In this document: piece by piece, positions 1,151 to 60,444 of the stretch | Numbering within the stretch: position 1 is the stretch's first letter | Layout: the number at the start of each line of letters is the position of its first letter | Assembly (NCBI RefSeq): GCF_018977255.1 | Contig: NW_024704742.1 | Coordinates: forward strand, 30,878,001 to 30,942,000 | Origin: Callorhinchus milii | Lineage: Eukaryota | Direction of reading: 5' to 3' | Length of the DNA: 64,000 nucleotides | Notes under the pieces: generated by a model | The model's input: only the letters and a program-made list of their open reading frames with translations | What the model was told of the DNA's origin: nothing | Databases searched by the model: none | Made by a program: the position numbers and the translations under genes

Positions 1151-2821
1151 ATCATCTCAGAGTGTTTCATACCATTTGAAGCCTGAGCAGGGTAGGGGAT
1201 GTGTGGATGAGGGGAGGCAGGAGGGAGGTGGCTTAAGTCAAAGAGGTAGGTTTTTAGGAGGGTTTTGAAAGCAGAAAAGGCAGGTTGCGAAGTGGAAGGG
1301 GTTTAAGAGCATTCCACAGAAAGGCATAATGGCTGAAAGCTCATTTACCAAGTAGTGGGATGGAGGAGGGTCAGGGAACATGAATCAGGCCTGAATTAGC
1401 AGAGTGGAGTGAGCAGAACTGGACCACACAGGTAGGATGGGCAAGGTTGTATTTGAAGGTAAGAAGAAGGGTTTTCACGTTGACCCAATGGGAAACCGGG
1501 AGCAGTGGAGCCTGATGAGATTGAAGGGTGATGAGCTCATGGAGCCTGATACAGGAAAGGATTTCTGAATAAACTTGCGCTTGTAAACTAAACTGGTGAG
1601 GGACTCAGTAGAGATATCACAGGTGACAAAGGCATGAATCCAGATCATCTAACCCACGCAGATGGTGAGTGTACTTTAATTAACCTCAGTGTCCGTGAGG
1701 TCGGGAGGGGGAATTCAGACAGATTCCTGCTATTGATGCCGAACTAGTAATCCTGCCTGGAGAGTGCCTGAGTGCGCAGAGCAGGATTGCATTTGGTTAC
1801 AATATTAATAATAAATAATAATAATAATAATCCTTGCATTTAATATAGTGCCTTATCACATCGTTGAGACGTCTCAAAGCATTTTGCACAATATATTGTG
1901 AAGTGGATTGACTGTGTATTTTGTGGGTGAAATGTGGCAGCTAATTGCACATGGCAGTATCCCATAAACAATCCTGGATTGAGTGACCAAATGTTTTTGT
2001 GTTATTCTCACCTTTGCTCCCATTTCCCTGTACTCTCTGACTAGGCACCCACGTGAAGAACAATCAGTTGCAGAAAGTGCTTTAAAAGAGAGCAATAGCA
2101 GATGAACTTGGAGAAAATCTTCTGTTCTGTTTTAACTAATGGCTTTCGAGTTATTGATACATTAAGTATTTAACACAAATGATATCTGTTTGCAGCCAGG
2201 CACAGTGAATCAATTCTGTTTTGTTGCATGCATGAAACTATTGACTTCATTGTGCTGCAGGTAATATACAAAGGTTTGAACATGTACGTTCCCTTGACTG
2301 TCTTGTGGTATCACGGTCAGTTTAGTATCAAAAGTAATATAAAAGAGCACGAGACTTGATGCTGCTGTAGTTCTTTGCTCATGTGGTTAGTACCTTTCAT
2401 CTTGTGATTGTTCTTAATCGTGAAAAAATCAATTTTATGTGGGCCATAGATACCTTTGGTACTGTATTAACTGAAACAGAAAGTGATCTTGTGAAAGTTT
2501 CCCCAAATTGATTTAATAATCCTTGCAACTGATATAGGGCTTTTCATGTGCGGTGCACGTCTCAAAGCACGTCACAGGATTTATTGTAAAGTGTAGTGAC
2601 TGTGTGTTTTGTAGATGAATACTGTACCCACCAAGTGTTAGCAAGACTGGACTCACTCGGAGCTGACATTTGAATTTAAATAGTGTTTCTGGACAAAGTC
2701 TATTGAGTGAGCAGATTCTGATGTGGAGTATGAACATGATTTCTCAGTAAGCATTGGCAAAATAAACTAAAAATATCTTTTTTATTCTTACTGTTTTTAA
2801 TTTAATTTGTAAGGTTACTGT

Positions 2822-3335
2822 AAGATTTACAAGAATGGTAGCAGGAATGAGGGACCTTGACTATGAGGAAAGGCTAGAGAGACTGGGATTATTCTTATTG
2901 GAGCAGAGAAGGTTACGAGGGGACCTAATAGAGGTCTTCAAAATCATGAGGGGATTTGATAGGTTAGAAAGGGAAAAACTGTTTCCACTGGTGAATGTGT
3001 CGGTGACTCGAGGTCACAGATTTAAAATAGTCTCTAAAAGAAGCAGAGGGGAGGTGAGAAGCAATTTTTTCACGCAGCGAGTTGTTCGAATCTGGGTCGC
3101 ATTGCCTGAAAGGGTGGTCGAGACCGATTCGATAACAACTTTTAAAAACAAGTTGGACAGGTATATTTGAGGAGGATGGGTCTGCAGGGTTATGGGGAAA
3201 GGGCTGGGGAGTGAAATTGACATTACATTGCTCTTTTCAAGAGCCGGCACAAACTCGATGGGCCGAATAATAATAATAATAATCCTTGCATTTGATATAT
3301 GGCCTCTTTTTGTGCTGTACGATTCTATGATTCTA
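2822..3335 (+). mobile_element. CR1 LINE 3' fragment (ORF2 C-terminus and 3'UTR)
   Basis: ORF 2835-3170: YEERLERLGLF..EQRRLRGDLIEVFKIM..TRGH..FFTQRVVRIW. Ends in a (gattctat)n-type tail. A ~33-nt SINE tail interrupts it at ~3267-3299. Confidence 0.92.
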
Positions 3336-4228: not shown

Positions 4229-4365
4229 CTCAGCAGATCAGGCAGCATTTATGGAGAGAGGAAAATGAGTTAACGTTTCAGGTTGATGACCTCCTGACCT
4301 GCTGAGTGCTCCCAGTGACTTTGGTTTTTATTTCAGATTTCTAGCATTTGCAGTATTTTGCCTTT
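4229..4365. mobile_element. Collapsed inverted Penelope-like end
   Basis: A minus-oriented arm (ctcagcagatcaggcagcatttatggag...aacgtttcagg) fused directly to a plus-oriented arm (cctgacctgctgagtgctcccag...gcagtattttgc). Confidence 0.75.
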
Positions 4366-9280: not shown

Positions 9281-9388
9281 TGAGTTCTGATGAAGGGTCG
9301 TGGACCCAAAACGTTGACTCACTTTCATTTCTCCATAGATGCTGCCTGACCTGCTGAGTGTTCCCAGCGACTTCTGTTTTGTTTCAGT
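9281..9388 (+). mobile_element. Penelope-like terminal fragment with a degenerate hammerhead core
   Basis: tgagtt-CTGATGA-agggtcgtggaccc-AAAA-cgtt-gactca. Same family as 37460-37580; GAAA is mutated to AAAA at 9308. Confidence 0.8.
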
Positions 9389-9473: not shown

Positions 9474-9789
9474 TAATAATATAATAATCCTTGCATTTGA
9501 TTTAGCACTTTTCACGTCTTCTCGACGTCTCAAAGTGCTTCACAGAATAGACTGTAAAGTGAATTGACTGTATATTTGAGGGTGAAACGCGGCAGCCAAT
9601 TGCGCACAGCAGTATCTCACAAACGGTTGTGGTTTGAAGTGACCAATTTATTATTGTTTTATTTTCTTGAGGGATTATTATCAGGCATGTGGAGTAAGGA
9701 AACTTGCCCAAGGTTTCAAGCTGCTGGGAATCGTACCCAGGTCTCTCACTTGCAAAGCGAGTGCTCTAACCACTGAGCTACAGGACTCC
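9474..9789 (-). mobile_element. Full-length tRNA-headed SINE (family A) inserted into an older Deu-type SINE
   Basis: Reverse complement of the family A sequence. The flanks (~9390-9473 and ~9790-9985) join into a plus-strand Deu-type SINE (gtgggttcaaggccc...ctgcatt | ggaggtgccattctttggatgagact..aaac). Confidence 0.9.
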
Positions 9790-16000: not shown

Positions 16001-16328
16001 GAGAGAGTGAAGAAATTTAGTGAGGATGTGGGAGAAAGAGAGAGTAAAGAAATCTATTCTGGATGTGAGATACTGAAGAAATCAAACAATTTGATCTGAT
16101 CACTTCAGTTTTAAAAGTTCAGACAACGTGATATGCATTGACACCTTACTAATGCTAATTACTGAGTACTGGTTTGAAATATGTGTGATGACATGTTGTG
16201 TAAGACCCTGAGAATACATTTAGCATATGTTGCTTACTGCTCACTGAATTCCCTAGTAACCACATTTAAATTTAGATGAATTAATAATCCTTGTATTTGA
16301 TTTGTTGCCTACCAAATAAAAGGATATT

Positions 16329-17551
16329 TTGAGTAAACTAGATAAGGATGTATCAGTGGATGTGGTCTATTTGGACTTCCAGAAGGCATTCGATAAGGTG
16401 CCGCATAAAAGGTTAGTCCAAAAGTTAGGGGCCCATGGAATTGGGGGGAGCATATTAATGTGGATTGGGGAATGGTTAATGGGTAGGAAACAAAGAGTAG
16501 GGATAAACGGGTCCTTTTCAGATTGGCGGGATGTGACTAGTGGAGTGCTACAAGGATCAGTCCTTAGGCCTCAGCTATTTACCATCTACATCAACGATCT
16601 AGATGAGGACATCGAAGTTAATATATTTAAATTTGCAGATGACACAAAACTAGGAGGAAGTGTCAACACAGAGGATGATATTAAAAAAATGCAGCACAAC
16701 ATAGGTTAGGTGATTGGGCAGGTAGGTGGCAGATGAAGTATAATGTAGGGAAGTGCGAAGTCATCCACCTAGGTAGCAAAAACAGTAGAGCGGGTTATTT
16801 GTTAGAAGGGGAGAGATTGGAATGTGTTAGCGTCCAGAGGGACTTGGGTGTCCTTGTACACCAATCACAGAAAGTTAGTCTGCAGGTGCAGCAGCAATTG
16901 GGAAGGCGAACGGTATGTTAGCATTCATTATGAAAGGAGAGTATAAGAGTAGGGAAGTCTTGCAGCAACTGTATAGGGCCCTGGTGAGACCACACCTGGA
17001 ATACTGTGTGCAGTTTTGGTCTCCTTATTTAAGGAAGGATGTACTTGCCTTGGAGGGGGTGCAGCGTAGATTTACTCGGTTAGCACCAGGGATGAAGGGG
17101 ATGAGTTATGAGGATAGGCTGACCAATTTGGGCCTATATTCTCTAGAATATAGAAGAATTAGAGGGTCTTATAGAAACCTATAAGATCATCAAAGGGCAT
17201 GATAGAGGTAGATAGTGGGAGATTGTTTTCCCTGGTTGGAGAAACTAAAACCAGGGGTCACAACCTTAAAATCAGAGGCCAGCCCTTTTGCACTGAGTTG
17301 AGGAAGAACTTCTTCACTCAAAGGGTGGTGAATGTATGGAACTCACTACCCCAAAGGGCTGTTGACGCTCAGTCCTTGAACATATTCAAGACTGAGATAG
17401 ATAAATTACTTATTGCAAAAGGGATTAAGGGATATGGGGATAAGGCAGGGTTATGGTATTAGCTGGAGTTAGATTAGAAGATCAGCCATGACTGAATGGC
17501 GGGGCAGGCTCGAAGGGCCGAATGGCCTACTCCTGCTCCTACATGTTATGT
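16329..17551 (+). mobile_element. 5'-truncated CR1 LINE: disrupted ORF2 reverse transcriptase, C-terminus and 3'UTR
   Basis: Consecutive ORF pieces carry YLDFQKAFDKVPH, VTSGVLQGSVL, YINDL, FADDTKL, LYRALVRPHLEYCVQFWSP, TRGH and FFTQRVVNVWNSLP. The 3'UTR reads gggccgaatggcctactcctgctcct. Broken by a stop and frameshifts. Minus-strand SINE sequence on both sides (16282-16300 and ~17555-17660) suggests insertion into a SINE. Confidence 0.95.
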
Positions 17552-24589: not shown

Positions 24590-24915
24590 GTGTCCTGTAG
24601 CTCAGTGGTTACAGAACTCGCCTCAGAAGCGAGAGGACCCGGTTCGATTCCCGGGCAGGGCGAAACCTTAGACAAGTTTCATTACTCCACACGCCTCTGT
24701 TTACCTAGCAGTAAGTAGGAAGCCAGTTGTTAGTTGATGGGTGGATCGCTTTTCTGGGGGTAATAATCCCTTAAAAAAAATCATCTTTTGGTCACTCAAT
24801 CCATGGCAACACCAACAACAAATTACATTTGTATAGCGCCTTTCACTTCGGGAGGACGTCCCAAAGCTCTATTTCTGGAACATTGCTGTATGCAATTGGC
24901 TGCCGCATTTTGCAA
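24590..24915 (+). mobile_element. tRNA-headed SINE (family B), interrupted by a minus-strand L2 tail at ~24808-24868
   Basis: gtcctgtagctcagtggtta...ggttcgattccc head plus the ctgtttacctagcagtaagtagg block. Confidence 0.88.
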
Positions 24916-31977: not shown

Positions 31978-32292
31978 GGAGTCCTGTAGCTCAGTGGTTA
32001 GAGCACTTGCTTTGCAAGCAAGAGACCTGGGTTTGATTCCCGGCAGGGTGAAACCTTGGGCAAGCTTCCTTACTCCACACGCCTGATAATAATCCCTCAA
32101 AAAAACAATAACAAATTGGTCGTTTCAATCCACGACTGTTTGTGGGACACTGCTGTGTGCAATTGGCTGCTGCATTTCACCCACAAATATACAGTCAATT
32201 CACTTTACAGTCTATTCTGTGAAGCGCTTTGAGACGTCCAGAAGACGTGAAAAGCGCTATATCAAATGCAAGGATTATTATTTTTTTATTAT
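31978..32292 (+). mobile_element. Full-length tRNA-headed SINE (family A; tRNA-Ala-like head, L2-type tail)
   Basis: ggagtcctgtagctcagtggttagagc (A box), an anticodon-like loop tttgcaa and ggtttgattcc (B box-like). Tail: tgtgaagcgctttgagacgtcc..gtgaaaagcgctatatcaaatgcaagg(att)n. Confidence 0.92.
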
Positions 32293-36100: not shown

Positions 36101-37150
36101 TTCAGACAAGTGTGAAAGAGCCACTGATTGCCATTAAAAGAGAGCACTTTGTTCCCAATGCATTGCACCTGTGAGCTGAGACAGAGCACCAACAGAAAAT
36201 GTGATTCACTCAGGCGTCCCCAGAAGGACATTGATGTGCAGTGACCTTCTGGTTCAGAATGCCGACATTAGTGGCTGTATAACAATTTGGGAAATTTCCC
36301 GAGCATCTCCGTATTTGGCTCTGGAGTGCCCCCCCACCCCACGGCTCAAGGCCCTTATTTACACCAGAATCCCGAGCCCTTTCAGGAAACCAGTCCACCA
36401 CTGACTGATACCAAAACAACTGGCCCACGACTGGGCTAACGCCAGCCAGCCCAGCGCAGAGTGAAGTTAAGTCCTATTCTGGCACCAAATTCCAATATTT
36501 TCAATAACATTAAAAGCCAGTTTTGGTGTTCTGCACGTGGGCCAAGCCGTGAGCACAGGAAACTAAAATCAGTTCTGAGTCTTTGGTACAGTTCCTCGTG
36601 AACGTATTATGCAGTGGATTGCAGAGTGTCTTCAGTCCCAGCAATATATCTACGGAGGAAGAAATGGGTAGTGCCAGAGAAACCAGTATTTTAAAAATAT
36701 GTATTTTGTTGTTACATTGTTTTTGGAACAGAATTCTAGCAAGGAAAGAAGTTGAAACAAAGTGTCAGGCTCTGCTGTCTGGGTCCGATGGCTCAGACAG
36801 GCATTGTAAGAAAGAAGCGTGAGAAATATGTCTGGCTTCCTTGAACTCAAGCCACCCCTAACATCACTTCCTGCGCATTGCACCAATGTGCCATGCCTTT
36901 GCGCACTTAAACAAAAACTTCCATCAGTTTGCTAACTTCACTTGCTGTATGCTGCACGTGCATATGCTCCTGACGTCACTTCCTTCGCAAAGTGTTGTCA
37001 GCGGTGCTTCCTGTAAACACTGCACAACGTGTAGGAAATGATGTCGGCAGCGATCTGGAGACCAAAGATTGGCCACTTTTTAAGTACAGGAAGCCAGCAG
37101 GTCCATGCATCAAAGCCAGCGGCAGGCAAACAAATCCACCTTATAACAAG

Positions 37151-37614
37151 AAAGAAAAACAGAAGTCGCTGGGAACACTCAGCAGGTCAGGCAGCATTTA
37201 TGGAGAAAGGAAAGTGAGTCAACGTTTCGGGTCCACGACCCTTCGACAGAACTGGGGCATGTTGGGAGGGAGCGGCTTTTAAGGGCTAACAGAGAGGGGG
37301 GAGGCAGGACAAGGAAGACAAAGGAGAAAATGGGGGTTAAAGAGGTATTAATGATGCAGAACAAAGTGGGGGATTGCAACAAAGCGGGGGAATAGAGGTG
37401 TTAATACTGCAAAACAAAGGGGGAGAAATTGCAAAAAAAATAGGCAGAAAATCTGGCCTCTCCCTCCCAACATGCCCAGTTCTGATGAAGGGTCTTGGAC
37501 CTGAAACGTTGACTCACTTTCCTTTCTCCTTAGATGCTGCCTGACCTACTGAGTGTTCCCAGCGACTTCTGTTCTTGTTTCAGAATTCCAGCATCTGCAG
37601 TATTTTGCGTTCTG
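37151..37614. mobile_element. Penelope-like non-autonomous element with inverted terminal arms
   Basis: ~120-bp inverted arms (37151-37272 and ~37460-37580) and an exact 16-bp direct repeat tccaccttataacaag at 37135-37150 and 37615-37630. The arm sequence ctgatgaagggtc..gacc.gaaacgtt..gatgctgcctgacctgctgag matches recalled fish/shark Penelope ends. Confidence 0.85.
37478..37514 (+). ncRNA. Candidate minimal type I hammerhead ribozyme motif
   Basis: Stem I agtt/gact; core CTGATGA (37482-37488); stem II gggtc-ttg-gacct; GAAA (37503-37506); loopless palindromic stem III AC/GT; NUH triplet GTT ending at 37510. Confidence 0.6.
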
Positions 37615-40600
37615 TCCACCTTATAACAAGGTTCCTCTGTATCTTACAGTTGCTTAATCTAGCGATATAATTTGTTGCATATTCAGTGCAATCTCAAATT
37701 CCCATCACTTCAAAGAACATTGTGCTGGGATTTGTTGTTTCAGGTATCAGGACTCAGTAAATGCCTGTACTGTATTGGTCTGGCTTGCATTGTCTGTTCT
37801 TTTTATCTGCTGATCCCTCTGTTCCTTTACTTCATTGATTTTAAACTACTCTGAACTATTTCTACACATATGAAGTCAAAAGTATCCGTGTCTTGTTAAT
37901 TTAAGAAACGAGTGTGAATAGTTTGAAAACTGAAAAATCTATTATGTTAAGACAAGGTTTATAATAATCATCCTCACATTTTCATATAGGCTTTTCAGCT
38001 GAGGAGGATTTCTGAAAGTGCTTCACAGGCTTTATTGTAAATTGTAGTGACTGTGCTTTGTGGGGGAACACGCCAGCCAATTTGTGTACAGCAGTGTCCC
38101 ACTAACAGCCATGGAATGAGTGACCAAATGAAAAAAATACAGATCCTTTTAACTTCATGTGTATATAAATAATCCAGAGTCATTTAAGATCAATGAAGTA
38201 AAGGAACAGAGGGATCATTAGATAAAAAGAACAGGCAGAGCAAGCTAGACGAATACAGACCTGATACCTGAAGACCAAATCCCAGGACAATGTTCCGTTC
38301 TCTTTGTGAACAGTGCCATGGGATCAACATCCAACAACTACTACTTGCATTTATATAGTACCCCTCATGGAAGGTAGCATCCCAAGAGCACTGCACTGGA
38401 GTATCAGGCTAGACTGAGTTCCAAGGCTTGACACGGTGCTTGAGCTCACAATCCTCTGACGCAGTGGCGAGCTTGCTACCAACTCAGTCAGGCTGATACC
38501 TACATACATTTGTACTGTATGGAGTGATATCTTGCACCAGGTCTAATTTAAAGATGCCTCAAACAATACTATACAGTTGTGACAATTTGCAACCCATGAA
38601 ACTGCAAACTGCTGACCCTTGTATTCTGGCACTTCTGTGGGAAGGATTCACATAGTAATGGATCCTCATGTATTATGCAGCTCAAGTAACAGCTGGTTCC
38701 ACTCCCTTGAACTTTTACTCCTAAAATGTGATACATCACTTGTGTCATGTTGGTACTCCCAGTGGTGGCTCTCTGATATCCTGAGCTTACTAGTCCTGTG
38801 GAATTCAGCCGTTTTACATCGAGGGGCTGATTGCACAGCTCCAACAGCAATGCACCATCTGTGTAGTTGGAGGTTGTGAAGAGATACATTTGTTATTTGG
38901 CCAATGGATCTCCCCCAACCCACGAGGGAAATGTAGCATTGTATATTCTCTCTGGGGGAATTACTCAGTTCTCTTTTATCGTTGTCCTTTCATGTATATT
39001 TGTTTAACCCCTTCCCTAAACCCAATACCAGTCCTCCGCCGGGCTAACACAGGCTTCCTGCACATCTCCGCCCCCTCTGCAGGGCATTCGGTGGCTGATC
39101 CTTCCGTCACTACACCCCTAAGCTCTGGACTCTATTCCTCTGTCCCTCTGGTTCACCCCATCTTTATTCGTCTTTAAATCCCACTTTAAAACCTCTCTTC
39201 AACCACGCCTACAGTCATCTCCCCCTTCGACTTTTCCCTTGATCAGTGTCTAACCCTGTCACTCTGAAGTGTTACGAGATATTATCCTACAAGAAGGGTG
39301 CTAGATAAATGTAAGTTACATTTTGTATTAGCCCAGCTGTTCTAGACATCCAGTGAATCAGAGACTACCTTGTGCATCTGTGACTCATGTAGGGAAGCAT
39401 GATTTAAGTGTCTGCCCAGTTGATGGTCTGATTTATGCTTGATTTTAAATGCCCCCCCCCCAATCACACCTGAAGTTGGCTAACATATGCCTCCAGTACA
39501 AAGTGCAGTGGAATTTTCACTATCCCAAGTTAATGTGGAATGCCACTGGATTAATTTATAACAAATCATTTCCTGATGGAGCAGACAGTCTCGGAAATAC
39601 CTGTGCCCAACAGGTAGAATAATAGAGCTTGGTGTTCAGTGACCAGTTAAATGTCTACACTAAAGTAATGAATAAGAGACAGAATTGGTGCGCTTTATTT
39701 CTATGCTTATGTGCAGTTTTGATGGACTTTTGAGATAGTCCTAGAGGTGCAACAAAGGATAGATTGCAGTGTGACACTGCTCTTGCCTTGCCTCTGACCC
39801 CTCCCTCCATTAATCTACACAAAGATCACTGAGCAGCAGATCATGTTCATAATTTTCTGACCAGGCTTGTAGGCACTGCTTTGAGAGAGCCTTTATGATT
39901 GACTCTCAATTCCACTGTGTGGGAGAGATCTTAGGAAAGGGAACTGTCCATAACATGCAATAGATAACTTGCACCTAAACAAAGGCACCTATAGTCTCTA
40001 AATTGTGTGTGAGCATGATTAAGAGTCCCATCCTTGAAGGGGGTGATGTGCAAGCAGCGTGTAAGACAAGATCCAGCCGAACTGTGATGACCTCACAGGT
40101 TAAAGGCCTCCCAACCCTCTGTCAGTGTCAGCACATGAATAATGGCCACTTAGGCAATGTATCAGACTCCTACCCCAGTAGATTTGAGTCTTAACAAGGG
40201 AGGGAGTAAATTTGGAAGAGGAAAAAAACTGTAATCATTCTATACGTTCTGATAAAAAATGTATATTATTGTGTATGTGTGTACCTACACACATATATAG
40301 ATTTTCTCATCAAAGGCTAAAGAGATCAAGAGGTTATGAAATATACCCTTTAATTGGGGATTTGTTTAGCAGGAGACATTAATAGTTATTGTAAAATTCA
40401 AATATTGACATCCAATCTGTGCACTCAGAGCCACAGGGTAAATGCGACACCTCATGTGTACTGTCTGTTTGGGGGATGTTGCTGCTGTTTCTTTGTTGAA
40501 CAGAAGAAGTTTCTTCGGGAAGCTTGCAGGACAATGGTGGCCCAGGGTAACTGCGTGAAGCTTGGCATTGAGCATCGATGTGAGCACGGCTTAGTTCAGA

Positions 40601-45401: not shown

Positions 45402-45696
45402 GCATGGAAGAAGCGCTGGTTTATACTCCGGAGTGGACGTCTGACGGGAGACCCAGACGTGTTGGAATACTACAAAAATGATCACACAAAGAAACCCATC
45501 CGCGTCATTGACTTGAATCTTTGCGAACAAGTGGACGCCGGGCTGACCTTTAACAAGAAGGATCTCGAGAACAGTTATATTTTTGACATCAAAACAATCG
45601 ACCGTGTCTTCTACCTTGTGGCAGACACCGAAGAGGAAATGAATAAGTGGGTTCGATGCATCTGTGACATCTGTGGGTTCAATCCTACTGATGAGG
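45402..45696 (+). CDS. GAB1: GAB1 coding exon 2 (bulk of the N-terminal PH domain), 295 nt, phase 0 to phase 1
   Basis: Acceptor cttatcttcAG (45400-45401) and donor GTaagt (45697). Translation: [98 protein letters not shown]. This matches my recollection of the GAB1 PH domain; [22 protein letters not shown] and [14 protein letters not shown] are GAB1-type rather than GAB2-type. Confidence 0.97.
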
Positions 45697-48741: not shown

Positions 48742-49068
48742 GGAGTCCTGTAGCTCAGTGGTTAGAGCACTCGCTTTGCAAGTGAGAGACCTGAGTTCAA
48801 TTCCAGGCAGAGGGCGAAACCTTGGGCAAGTTTCCTTACTCCACACAGAGCCTAATAATAATCCCTCAAAAACCCAAAACAGCAATAAATTGGTCATTTT
48901 CAATCTACGACTGTTTGTGGGACATTGCTGTGCGCAATTGGCTGCCGCGTTCGCCCACAAATATACAGTCAATTCACTTTACAGTGTGTTCTGTGAAGCG
49001 CTTTGGGACGTCCTCCCGACGTGAAAAGCGCTATATCAAATGCAAGGATTATTATTATTATTATTATT
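48742..49068 (+). mobile_element. Full-length tRNA-headed SINE (family A)
   Basis: Closely similar to 31978-32292 from head to (att)n tail. Confidence 0.92.
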
Positions 49069-58097: not shown

Positions 58098-59764
58098 TGT
58101 AGTATAACATTCCCAAAATGTTCATAAAAGTATATTTAATCTAGTGATCCCCCCCCCAATGAAGCTGTCAAACTTGTTTACTGAATGTAATGCAAGATTG
58201 TAAGTTTGTGGTAAGCTGTATAAAATAAACATCCCTTGAATCTACTATATTTAAAACCACTTGTAAATATTAAGTCTTTACAACATACACTCACTGCTAA
58301 AAATAGCAATCTTTTTAGACATGGGGGGAAATGGGTGCTATTTTTAACTCACCACCATAAGGTTATTTGTATTAATAAATATATCCCAGAATTTAGAGAC
58401 TTTTTTTCCTCACTACATATTTTGGAGCTGCACTCACTTCTTTGCTCTTTGTAAGGCAACAGTGTGGTGAATCGATCACTTTTCCAGTTTATCCTACCCA
58501 CTAACAACATTCAAAATACCAATTTATCCTCTGAATCAGTGGCCAGGGTCATTGGTTTTAAAGTCAGGTCCACAATAATGCCTACAAGTTTGCCCGGTCA
58601 GGCCTGTTTGGCTGTGTTATTAGATAATGGGAGCTTCTCCTGCACTGCCCCACATGGGGCCCCAAATTCCACCTAGTGTCATCCTGTTGTGAAAAGGTTG
58701 TGTCGTGCACAACTGTGGAACATTCTCAAATTCAGTCCCAATTCAGAACCCAGTTTGTTGGAAATGTGAAAAAATCGAAGCTGAATTTAAGAATTTTCCA
58801 CAATAATGCACGATCTTAAATTTTAAGGCAAAATGTTCACAAAGGCTAAGACTCTGTAGAATTTTGATTTCCAAAGTATTTTCTCTCCACCCCACTTCCC
58901 CCACCTAACACTTCCTGCACCAGACATACGGTACCTCTGAGAGAGATTGCAAGTAGGAGTAAGTAACTAACAGTACGTAGGAACCGGGTTGTTAGTTGAT
59001 TGGCGGATCACTTTTCCGGGGTAATAATTCCTTCAAAAAAATATATATTTTTTAAAAAAATAATAATAATTTGGTCACTCAATTCATGACTGTTTGTGGG
59101 ACACTGTTGGGCATAATTGGCAGCCACATTTCACCCACAAAATATACCGTCAATTCACCTTACCATATATCTTGTGCAGCTCTTTGAGGCATCTCAAAGA
59201 CATGATAAGGGGCTATATCAAATGCAAAGATTATTATTATTGCTGTATTTTATAGAATGCATTCAGGTACAGTATCCTTCAGAATTGAATGACTTTATTT
59301 TAGTGACTTTATTTTAGATGAAAAGCTTCTACAGCTCTCTCAGATAGGTGATGCTTGTGAATTGTAGATCATTTACACTAGGGGAAAACAGTAGTAAAAT
59401 AATCCACAAGGCGGTGGCCAATGTTCAGTCAGGTTTTACGATTGATGGTTTATGTTGGATATTAACTTCGAGCAATTAAAATGCTGAAATTACCCATATT
59501 TATTGTCACTTAACATGTTTGATTTTCTTATTGGATCATAGGTTGGGATTTCCTGGCAATTTTAACGTGTACAGAATTAAAGGTTACAGATTAATTCAAT
59601 TTAGTACCACACCACTTTATGGTAGCTGCATTTCAGTGACAGATGGCAGTCTTGCAATTGTACGCTTCTTTTGTTTAAATGAGCTCTTTATTATGTTTGG
59701 CTGTTTAATTAGATATTGCCTTTGTTGTCTTGTCATCTTCCCATTTCCTCTGTTTACGAACTAG

Positions 59765-59851
59765 CCGAACGTCATCTTTTGCTACAGAAGAGGGGGACGA
59801 GTATCTTCTGCTGGAAGATTTTGAAAGCAAAAAGCAACCGTTTCACAACCA
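59765..59851 (+). CDS. GAB1: Putative GAB1 alternative cassette exon between exons 3 and 4 (87 nt, phase 2-2), (S)RTSSFATEEGDEYLLLEDFESKKQPFHN(Q)
   Basis: Pyrimidine tract (tcttcccatttcctctgttt) and ctAG at 59763-59764; donor GTgagt at 59852. Length is 29 codons, with no stop in the frame set by exon 3. A striated-muscle GAB1 isoform with an extra short exon at this position is known in mammals (recalled). Confidence 0.8.
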
Positions 59852-60444
59852 GTGAGTTTTGTAAGCTGCATACGAGTCTATGATGAAAGCGTAGGCTGGT
59901 GTGCAGTTCAGAGTGTTCAGGATTGGTTTTTTGTGACAGAAAATGAATGATTCGGCAATTCCACTCTGCAAATTATGCCACATTCACTGCTTGAAAAGTC
60001 TTGCTGTTGATATTAACAGGCTCCTACTAACACTTCACATGCACCGTGTTGATGCTTTGAATCTGTACGAGGTGAGATGTTGGCAGGGGCTCGAGCTTGG
60101 TGATTACTTGGTGGAGGTTGCATGGTGCATTTGATTTGTTAATCATAAACTGGCCACTGTAGCCCACTTCTCACACACTCTCCCTAACCTCATTGAAAGA
60201 CTTAATTGTGCAGAGACTTGCTCTTGAACGGCCTTACGCGAAGTAATTTGAAGGCAGAATGATTTTCGAAGTGTACTTACACACTCCCGCACAGTTAAAC
60301 ACACGTCAGGGTAAGTTGTTACAGTGGCCTTATGTTTGAGCGTTCGCGTGAAAATGCTTTATGAATCCTTAATAAAATGAAGAGGAATGACAATGAGGTA
60401 AACTCTGCAGATTTTCAGAGGCTGGCAAGCGAAGGGTGACATTT

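Follow-up and report, generated by a model that had tools for sequence, protein, structure and literature searches.

How did a 464-bp fold-back with a hammerhead ribozyme motif come to lie within GAB1, and does its inverted layout belong to the design of a mobile element or to the way in which a copy was inserted? The window, by which we mean the whole 64-kb stretch of Callorhinchus milii DNA analysed here, carries GAB1 on the plus strand, with exons 2-4 placed at 45402, 54927 and 59763 by protein comparison, and the earlier reading of this strand as GAB1 sense is borne out by the exon and protein matches. Exon 2 (45402..45695, plus strand), recognised by domain and protein matches, encodes the PH domain; its protein is identical to C. 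milii GAB1, and the exon has 96-98% identity to GAB1 of sharks and rays. No coding sequence for GAB1 residues 1-24 was found within the 64-kb window, and a six-frame short-motif scan of it for GAB exon 1 motifs gave chance matches only. As exon 1 lies outside the window, the insert falls in intron 1, about 7.8 kb upstream of exon 2. Elsewhere in the gene, a 30-codon exon (59763-59852) is matched by C. milii and Heterodontus proteins and not by the tested Pristiophorus isoform; going by these matches, it is probably alternatively spliced.

We read the insert as a defunct piece of a Penelope-like element (PLE), an ordinary copy in a layout already described for PLEs. We consider it very probable that it represents a single inactive insertion by an endonuclease-bearing PLE and that the fold-back was made at insertion.

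Anatomy of the insert

The insert occupies 37151-37614 (464 bp) between two copies of a 16-bp target-site duplication (TSD) of host DNA, TCCACCTTATAACAAG, the left at 37135-37150 and the right at 37615-37630, both read on the plus strand. The two copies are exact, they are the only occurrences in the whole window, and the match does not continue beyond either side, so the first-pass annotation was right to describe an exact 16-bp TSD around a 464-bp insert. In sequencing run X1, contigs cross the two outer junctions with 0 and 2 differences; the inner one is crossed by a contig from run X4, which comes from another study. With all three junctions spanned, the insert is not an assembly artefact. 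In each of two further organisms, B and C, the right-flank match of one contig starts at 37619, inside the TSD and without the tail, which suggests an empty orthologous site. In these organisms, matches extend over 300 bp of the right flank, whereas the left flank at 36850-37075 is thinly covered; the left flank may have diverged, or may itself be lineage-specific.

Two inverted arms, at 37150-37276 and 37456-37581, give an alignment of 127 columns with 91% identity, the 11 differences being 10 substitutions and one indel. The arms had been noticed before, at a length of about 120 bp that now proves slightly short. The insert as a whole consists of two head-to-head pieces of one element end. 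Arm alignment and a depth gradient delimit a 305-nt inverted half (37151..37455, minus strand), a 5'-truncated element end without a tail, and arm alignment delimits a 159-nt direct half (37456..37614, plus strand), likewise 5'-truncated and with a tail. What the halves do not share amounts to 179 nt present only in the inverted half and 33 nt present only in the direct half. The former is the middle of the insert (37277..37455, minus strand), which lies upstream of the shared arm, is pyrimidine-rich on the element strand, occurs in family contigs at falling depth and holds two 46-nt copies 53 bp apart (37328-37426). The latter is a one-sided tail (37582..37614, plus strand), present also in the family copy at 4293 and in the loose ends of hundreds of contigs, and missing from the left arm and from the copy at 9283. 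Both the tail and the family identity of the middle had been overlooked. A small hairpin, CAGA-AAA-TCTG (37443..37457, -3.7 kcal/mol as DNA), has its stem ending at the inner junction, 37455/37456.

This layout is familiar from PLEs. Among rotifer PLE insertions, Arkhipova et al. (2013, PMC3846280) describe an inverted pLTR with a 31-bp tail and a 9-bp TSD, TSDs there measuring 8-10 bp, and Craig et al. (2021, PMC8557442) describe an adjacent inverted 5'-truncated copy and a 30- to 40-bp tail in PLEs; the adjacent inverted 5'-truncated copy, the one-sided tail and the TSD around the unit are also described in PMC8969392. Like the endonuclease-bearing insertions in PMC3846280 and PMC8557442, ours has head-to-head truncated copies, a one-sided tail, a single TSD and a small junction palindrome. 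Unlike the rotifer examples given in PMC3846280, it has a TSD of 16 bp rather than 8-10 bp and no coding sequence left. The PLE traits seen here comprise an inverted 5'-truncated pLTR copy beside a direct copy, with a second case at 4229, a 33-nt tail where 30-40 bp is expected, two 3' ends and variable 5' truncation. PLEs are reported from all vertebrate lineages examined, elephant shark included (PMC4350176).

A six-frame short-motif scan of the window for PLE reverse transcriptase or GIY-YIG coding sequence gave chance matches only. PLE membership rests on the layout and the ribozyme, which together support the assignment made in the first-pass annotation. An RVT_1 match at 16320-16706 lies at a distance from the insert and was not connected with it. 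Broken reverse-transcriptase frames lie at 16320-17462 and 2766-3170, which resemble fragments of CR1-type LINEs. Four near-identical tRNA-like heads scored by Rfam (9716-9787, 24592-24661, 31980-32051 and 48748-48810) are probably one tRNA-derived SINE family and not tRNA genes.

The hammerhead motif and its predicted masking

The right arm matches a minimal type I hammerhead (37478..37514, plus strand) with its core letters intact and a predicted cut after 37510. A min-HHR descriptor that follows Cervera and De la Pena (2014, PMC4209133) was run on both strands of the 64 kb and matched at a single site, in this arm, with no match in 150 Markov-2 control windows. Helix I (AGUU/GACU, 37478-81 / 37511-14) is followed by CUGAUGA, one extra A and a 5-bp stem II; the 3' part consists of GAAA, a palindromic C-G (15.2-16.2), UU and the second helix I strand. 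The motif fits the consensus of Fig. S3 of PMC4209133 and resembles the metazoan PLE minimal hammerheads (min-HHRs) described there in its CUGANGA, extra base, G10.1 stem II, GAAA, palindromic 15.2-16.2, NUH and short helix I. Table S1 and the Fig. S3 rows of that paper include no cartilaginous fish. The same paper already reports min-HHR pairs 100-700 bp apart on opposite strands.

The motif had earlier been called intact. The core and layout hold, as does the predicted cut, but the pair closing stem II is G10.1-U11.1 in the right arm as against G-C in the other two close copies (left arm and 9283), so that "intact" applies to the core letters only. A U at 11.1 in place of C is shared by several of the min-HHR examples published in PMC4209133. 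The left arm holds the mirror motif (37217..37253, minus strand), delimited by alignment of the copies, in which the G-C closing pair of stem II is intact and the core is mutated (A6 to U at 37246); this is the minus-strand CTGTCGA that the earlier reading had correctly picked out. Private ribozyme changes differ among the close copies, with A6 to U in the left arm and G12 to A at 9283, and two of the changes are CpG-type. Each close copy is damaged at a different place, and none is therefore fully canonical. One stem II is common to the three close copies, which are too few and too alike to show covariation. The covariance-model check proposed in the first-pass annotation came out negative, in that no hammerhead family reached the Rfam gathering score anywhere in the window, nor did one appear at E up to 10 over 37100-37700, where the search gave three chance lncRNA matches.

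An ATG in the hammerhead core is followed by a stop after 20 codons, which sets the insert apart from the anole Poseidon element PAc, whose ORF begins at stem II (PMC11167929). Non-LTR retrozymes (Cervera and De la Pena 2020, PMC7229834; bioRxiv 10.64898/2026.07.22.740005) offer another comparison, being likewise short, non-coding, PLE-related and furnished with a type I hammerhead. Retrozymes, however, are head-to-tail tandems able to form dimers or circles, whereas the two copies in the insert face each other head to head and give each strand a single sense ribozyme. Identification as a non-LTR retrozyme was rejected on finding one descriptor match, a head-to-head pair and no head-to-tail units with complete hammerheads.

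When folded in full, the element is predicted to form one long hairpin (-250 kcal/mol, z -16.8). In an isolated 47-mer the hammerhead helices have a modelled probability of 0.54-0.90, which drops to at most 0.03 when the right arm is folded by itself and to 0.00 for the full element. Left to fold freely, a 56-nt piece with the motif does no better than its shuffles (z +1.1), and the modelled dimer fold reaches -10.5 kcal/mol against -24.4 kcal/mol for the best cofold, in a model blind to core contacts. In GAB1 pre-mRNA, transcription reaches the antisense arm before the hammerhead, and pairing between the two should keep the ribozyme from folding. Masking of this kind had been suggested before, and the predicted folds agree with it, but it looks like a by-product: 7 of the 10 arm substitutions break pairing and 3 keep a wobble pair, and the helices stay at or below 0.03 even in the right arm alone.

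That sequestration would be a selected function appears unlikely from such modelling, given that only 3 of 10 substitutions keep a wobble and given the behaviour of related ribozymes. In the experiments of PMC4209133, single min-HHRs showed no cleavage in vitro and dimers little; the anole PLE hammerhead required protein for cleavage and was dispensable for insertion (PMC11167929); and one of nine Xenopus dimers was cleaved (Li et al. 2026, bioRxiv 10.64898/2026.07.22.740005). On the GAB1 sense strand, the right arm also has two pyrimidine tracts ending in CAG that resemble 3' splice sites (37565-37584 and 37590-37601), the first of which falls in the portion masked by the antisense arm.

Copies and joints across the family

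Two further family copies lie in the window, and the relatives reported earlier at 9281 and 4229 are real, similarity to the arms placing them at 9283-9387 and 4229-4364. The former (plus strand) is a solo, tail-less copy that starts at helix I and carries the G12 to A change in its core. The latter is an older head-to-head copy, with an inverted part at 4229-4291 and a direct part with tail at 4293-4364, whose two halves have just 14 nt in common. No clean TSD was found at either copy. The 5' ends differ among the family copies in the window, and the arms of the insert differ from one another as much as from the 9283 copy.

Contigs from four runs (X1, X12 and X15 of DNA, X4 by our guess of RNA) were matched to 36700-38100 at a threshold of 80% likeness, yielding 15,816 (X1), 5,225 (X4), 31,373 (X12) and 27,303 (X15). 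The matches pile mostly on the arms, and some on a separate repeat beside the insert at 38015-38055, another high-copy fragment, at which every run shows a separate pile of depth and further loose ends. Along the inverted half, summed depth in X1, which is not to be equated with copy number, drops from 528k (37170-37216) through 143k, 38k, 12k and 4.6k to 2.0k (37405-37451), and the stepwise fall recurs in every run. From this falling depth we infer that the middle belongs to the family and that ever fewer copies extend into each successive part of it. We read the family as the 3' end of a longer element.

Among the 24 rows of loose ends listed, of 2,388, two 3' end classes are defined. Loose ends at 37150 continue into the tail (342 contigs in X12, 262 in X15 and 42 in X4). 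Those at 37151/37155 carry a few tail-like letters and then mixed AT-rich flanks, while those at 37608-37615 leave the end of the tail for sequence that is likewise mixed and AT-rich; agreement among flanks is 0.38-0.46 at both places. As the ends at 37151/37155 keep letters like the tail start, the tail-less end is not sharp.

There are 708 joints, and the 15 of them listed link arm to arm, each at a different point; none of these 15 is a direct 480-nt skip. None of the long family pieces listed crosses the inner junction of this insert. Together with the depth gradient and the solo copies, the varied joints and uncrossed junction speak against the part of the first-pass annotation that saw a short non-coding family with a fixed fold-back layout. 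Many arm joints of other copies fall at 37476-37480, just before helix I, where the 9283 copy also starts. This may mark a preferred 5' end or be an alignment effect; we do not read it as a preferred end, since a one-base indel at 37474 can stop alignments.

Exact-pattern searches returned nothing from viral contigs or prokaryote genomes. Six metagenome pattern matches were dismissed as chance, being 20-21 nt long, in contigs of 60-66% GC and with no further similarity. A literature search found no paper on this chimaera family, which may already be catalogued in Repbase or Dfam, both outside that search.

Origin and meaning of the fold-back

We propose a model where the element protein would nick both target strands, 16 nt apart, and each free 3'-OH would prime the copying of element RNA by reverse transcription, the two priming events using separate start sites that lie 33 nt apart. 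Synthesis of either cDNA would end early, at 159 and 305 nt, and the two would then join at their truncated ends, leaving a copy that would now decay without selection. With two priming events and early-stopped cDNAs joined, the fold-back would be a product of insertion and not of element design. Each half has its 3' end directly against a TSD copy, and the two halves represent different end classes. Each half holds sequence that the other lacks, and neither merely duplicates its partner, a pattern that favours two priming events, one per nick; a later central deletion could also be the source of the asymmetry. The purified protein of PAc, modelled as a dimer, was shown to cleave both strands and extend them (Frangieh et al. 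2024, PMC11167929); it initiates at two positions within the RNA, thereby defining the tail, and favours AT-rich DNA. The insert resembles PAc in having two 3' ends that delimit the tail, downstream of the hammerhead, and AT-rich flanks, and would resemble it too, under our model, in the cutting and extension of either strand.

Within the same PLE origin, the mirror half might instead have arisen by fold-back self-priming of one cDNA, with the 179-nt asymmetry left by a later deletion at the palindrome centre. Long DNA palindromes are prone to deletion, and the small hairpin ends exactly at the inner junction. Self-priming from palindromes at inverted junctions has also been proposed (PMC3846280). 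This route nonetheless requires a second event, the junction hairpin is weak at -3.7 kcal/mol, and the halves end at two separate family-wide 3' end classes, as two priming events predict; we regard it as unlikely. It is very improbable that the insert is a short non-autonomous element, a fixed 464-bp fold-back spreading as a unit with an antisense arm that controls the ribozyme. Non-autonomous PLE derivatives are known (PMC8557442; bioRxiv 10.64898/2026.07.22.740005) and the predicted hairpin is strong, but a fixed unit is at odds with the depth gradient, the varied joints and the want of any listed long family piece across 37455/37456. The 9283 copy is solo, the 4229 copy has another junction, the arms are as unlike each other as they are unlike the 9283 copy, and retrozymes are head-to-tail tandems rather than head-to-head pairs.

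Two readings that depart further from the proposed double priming fare worse. Co-option of the insert to regulate GAB1 pre-mRNA, by conditional self-cleavage or through a long dsRNA hairpin, would fit its sense orientation in intron 1, its intact core letters and its presence in samples of two studies (X1 and X4). We find it scarcely credible: contigs of two related species suggest that the insert is missing at the orthologous site, 7 of 10 arm substitutions break pairing, the helices do not exceed 0.03 even without the antisense arm, and the hammerhead has no dimer partner, the nearest sense copy being 28 kb off and core-mutated; the anole hammerhead, moreover, required its protein for cleavage (PMC11167929). 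To a MITE or fold-back DNA transposon, with the arms as terminal inverted repeats, we give next to no credence. In its favour are a TSD and inverted arms that start at the left boundary, but the right arm ends 33 nt before the TSD, which largely refutes the terminal-repeat reading. Solo and variably truncated copies without a fixed length, and arms that hold a hammerhead, also argue against it. TSDs of DDE transposons measure 2-11 bp, a range that 16 bp exceeds.

The preferred reading, then, remains a PLE insertion whose two halves were primed separately. As one of very many decayed copies, the single locus matters little, though it illustrates the inverted-copy-plus-tail layout with textbook clarity, and the fact that neither of its halves is nested in the other bears on how PLEs form inverted ends. 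Head-to-head geometry puts an antisense copy ahead of the sense hammerhead on either strand, and fold-back insertions would thereby silence their own ribozyme. It is tempting to go further, although we think the whole of it very unlikely, and to expect that, should chimaera min-HHRs cleave host transcripts in vivo, introns would be depleted of intact solo sense copies yet tolerate fold-backs; asymmetric halves with a long TSD would also record, in the genome, priming on both strands by a PLE protein acting as a dimer. The high-copy chimaera family could serve for measuring how far apart the nicks lie, where the two starts fall and whether selection acts against intronic sense hammerheads and, if the idea is true, its many genomic copies would form a natural test of minimal hammerhead action in cells.
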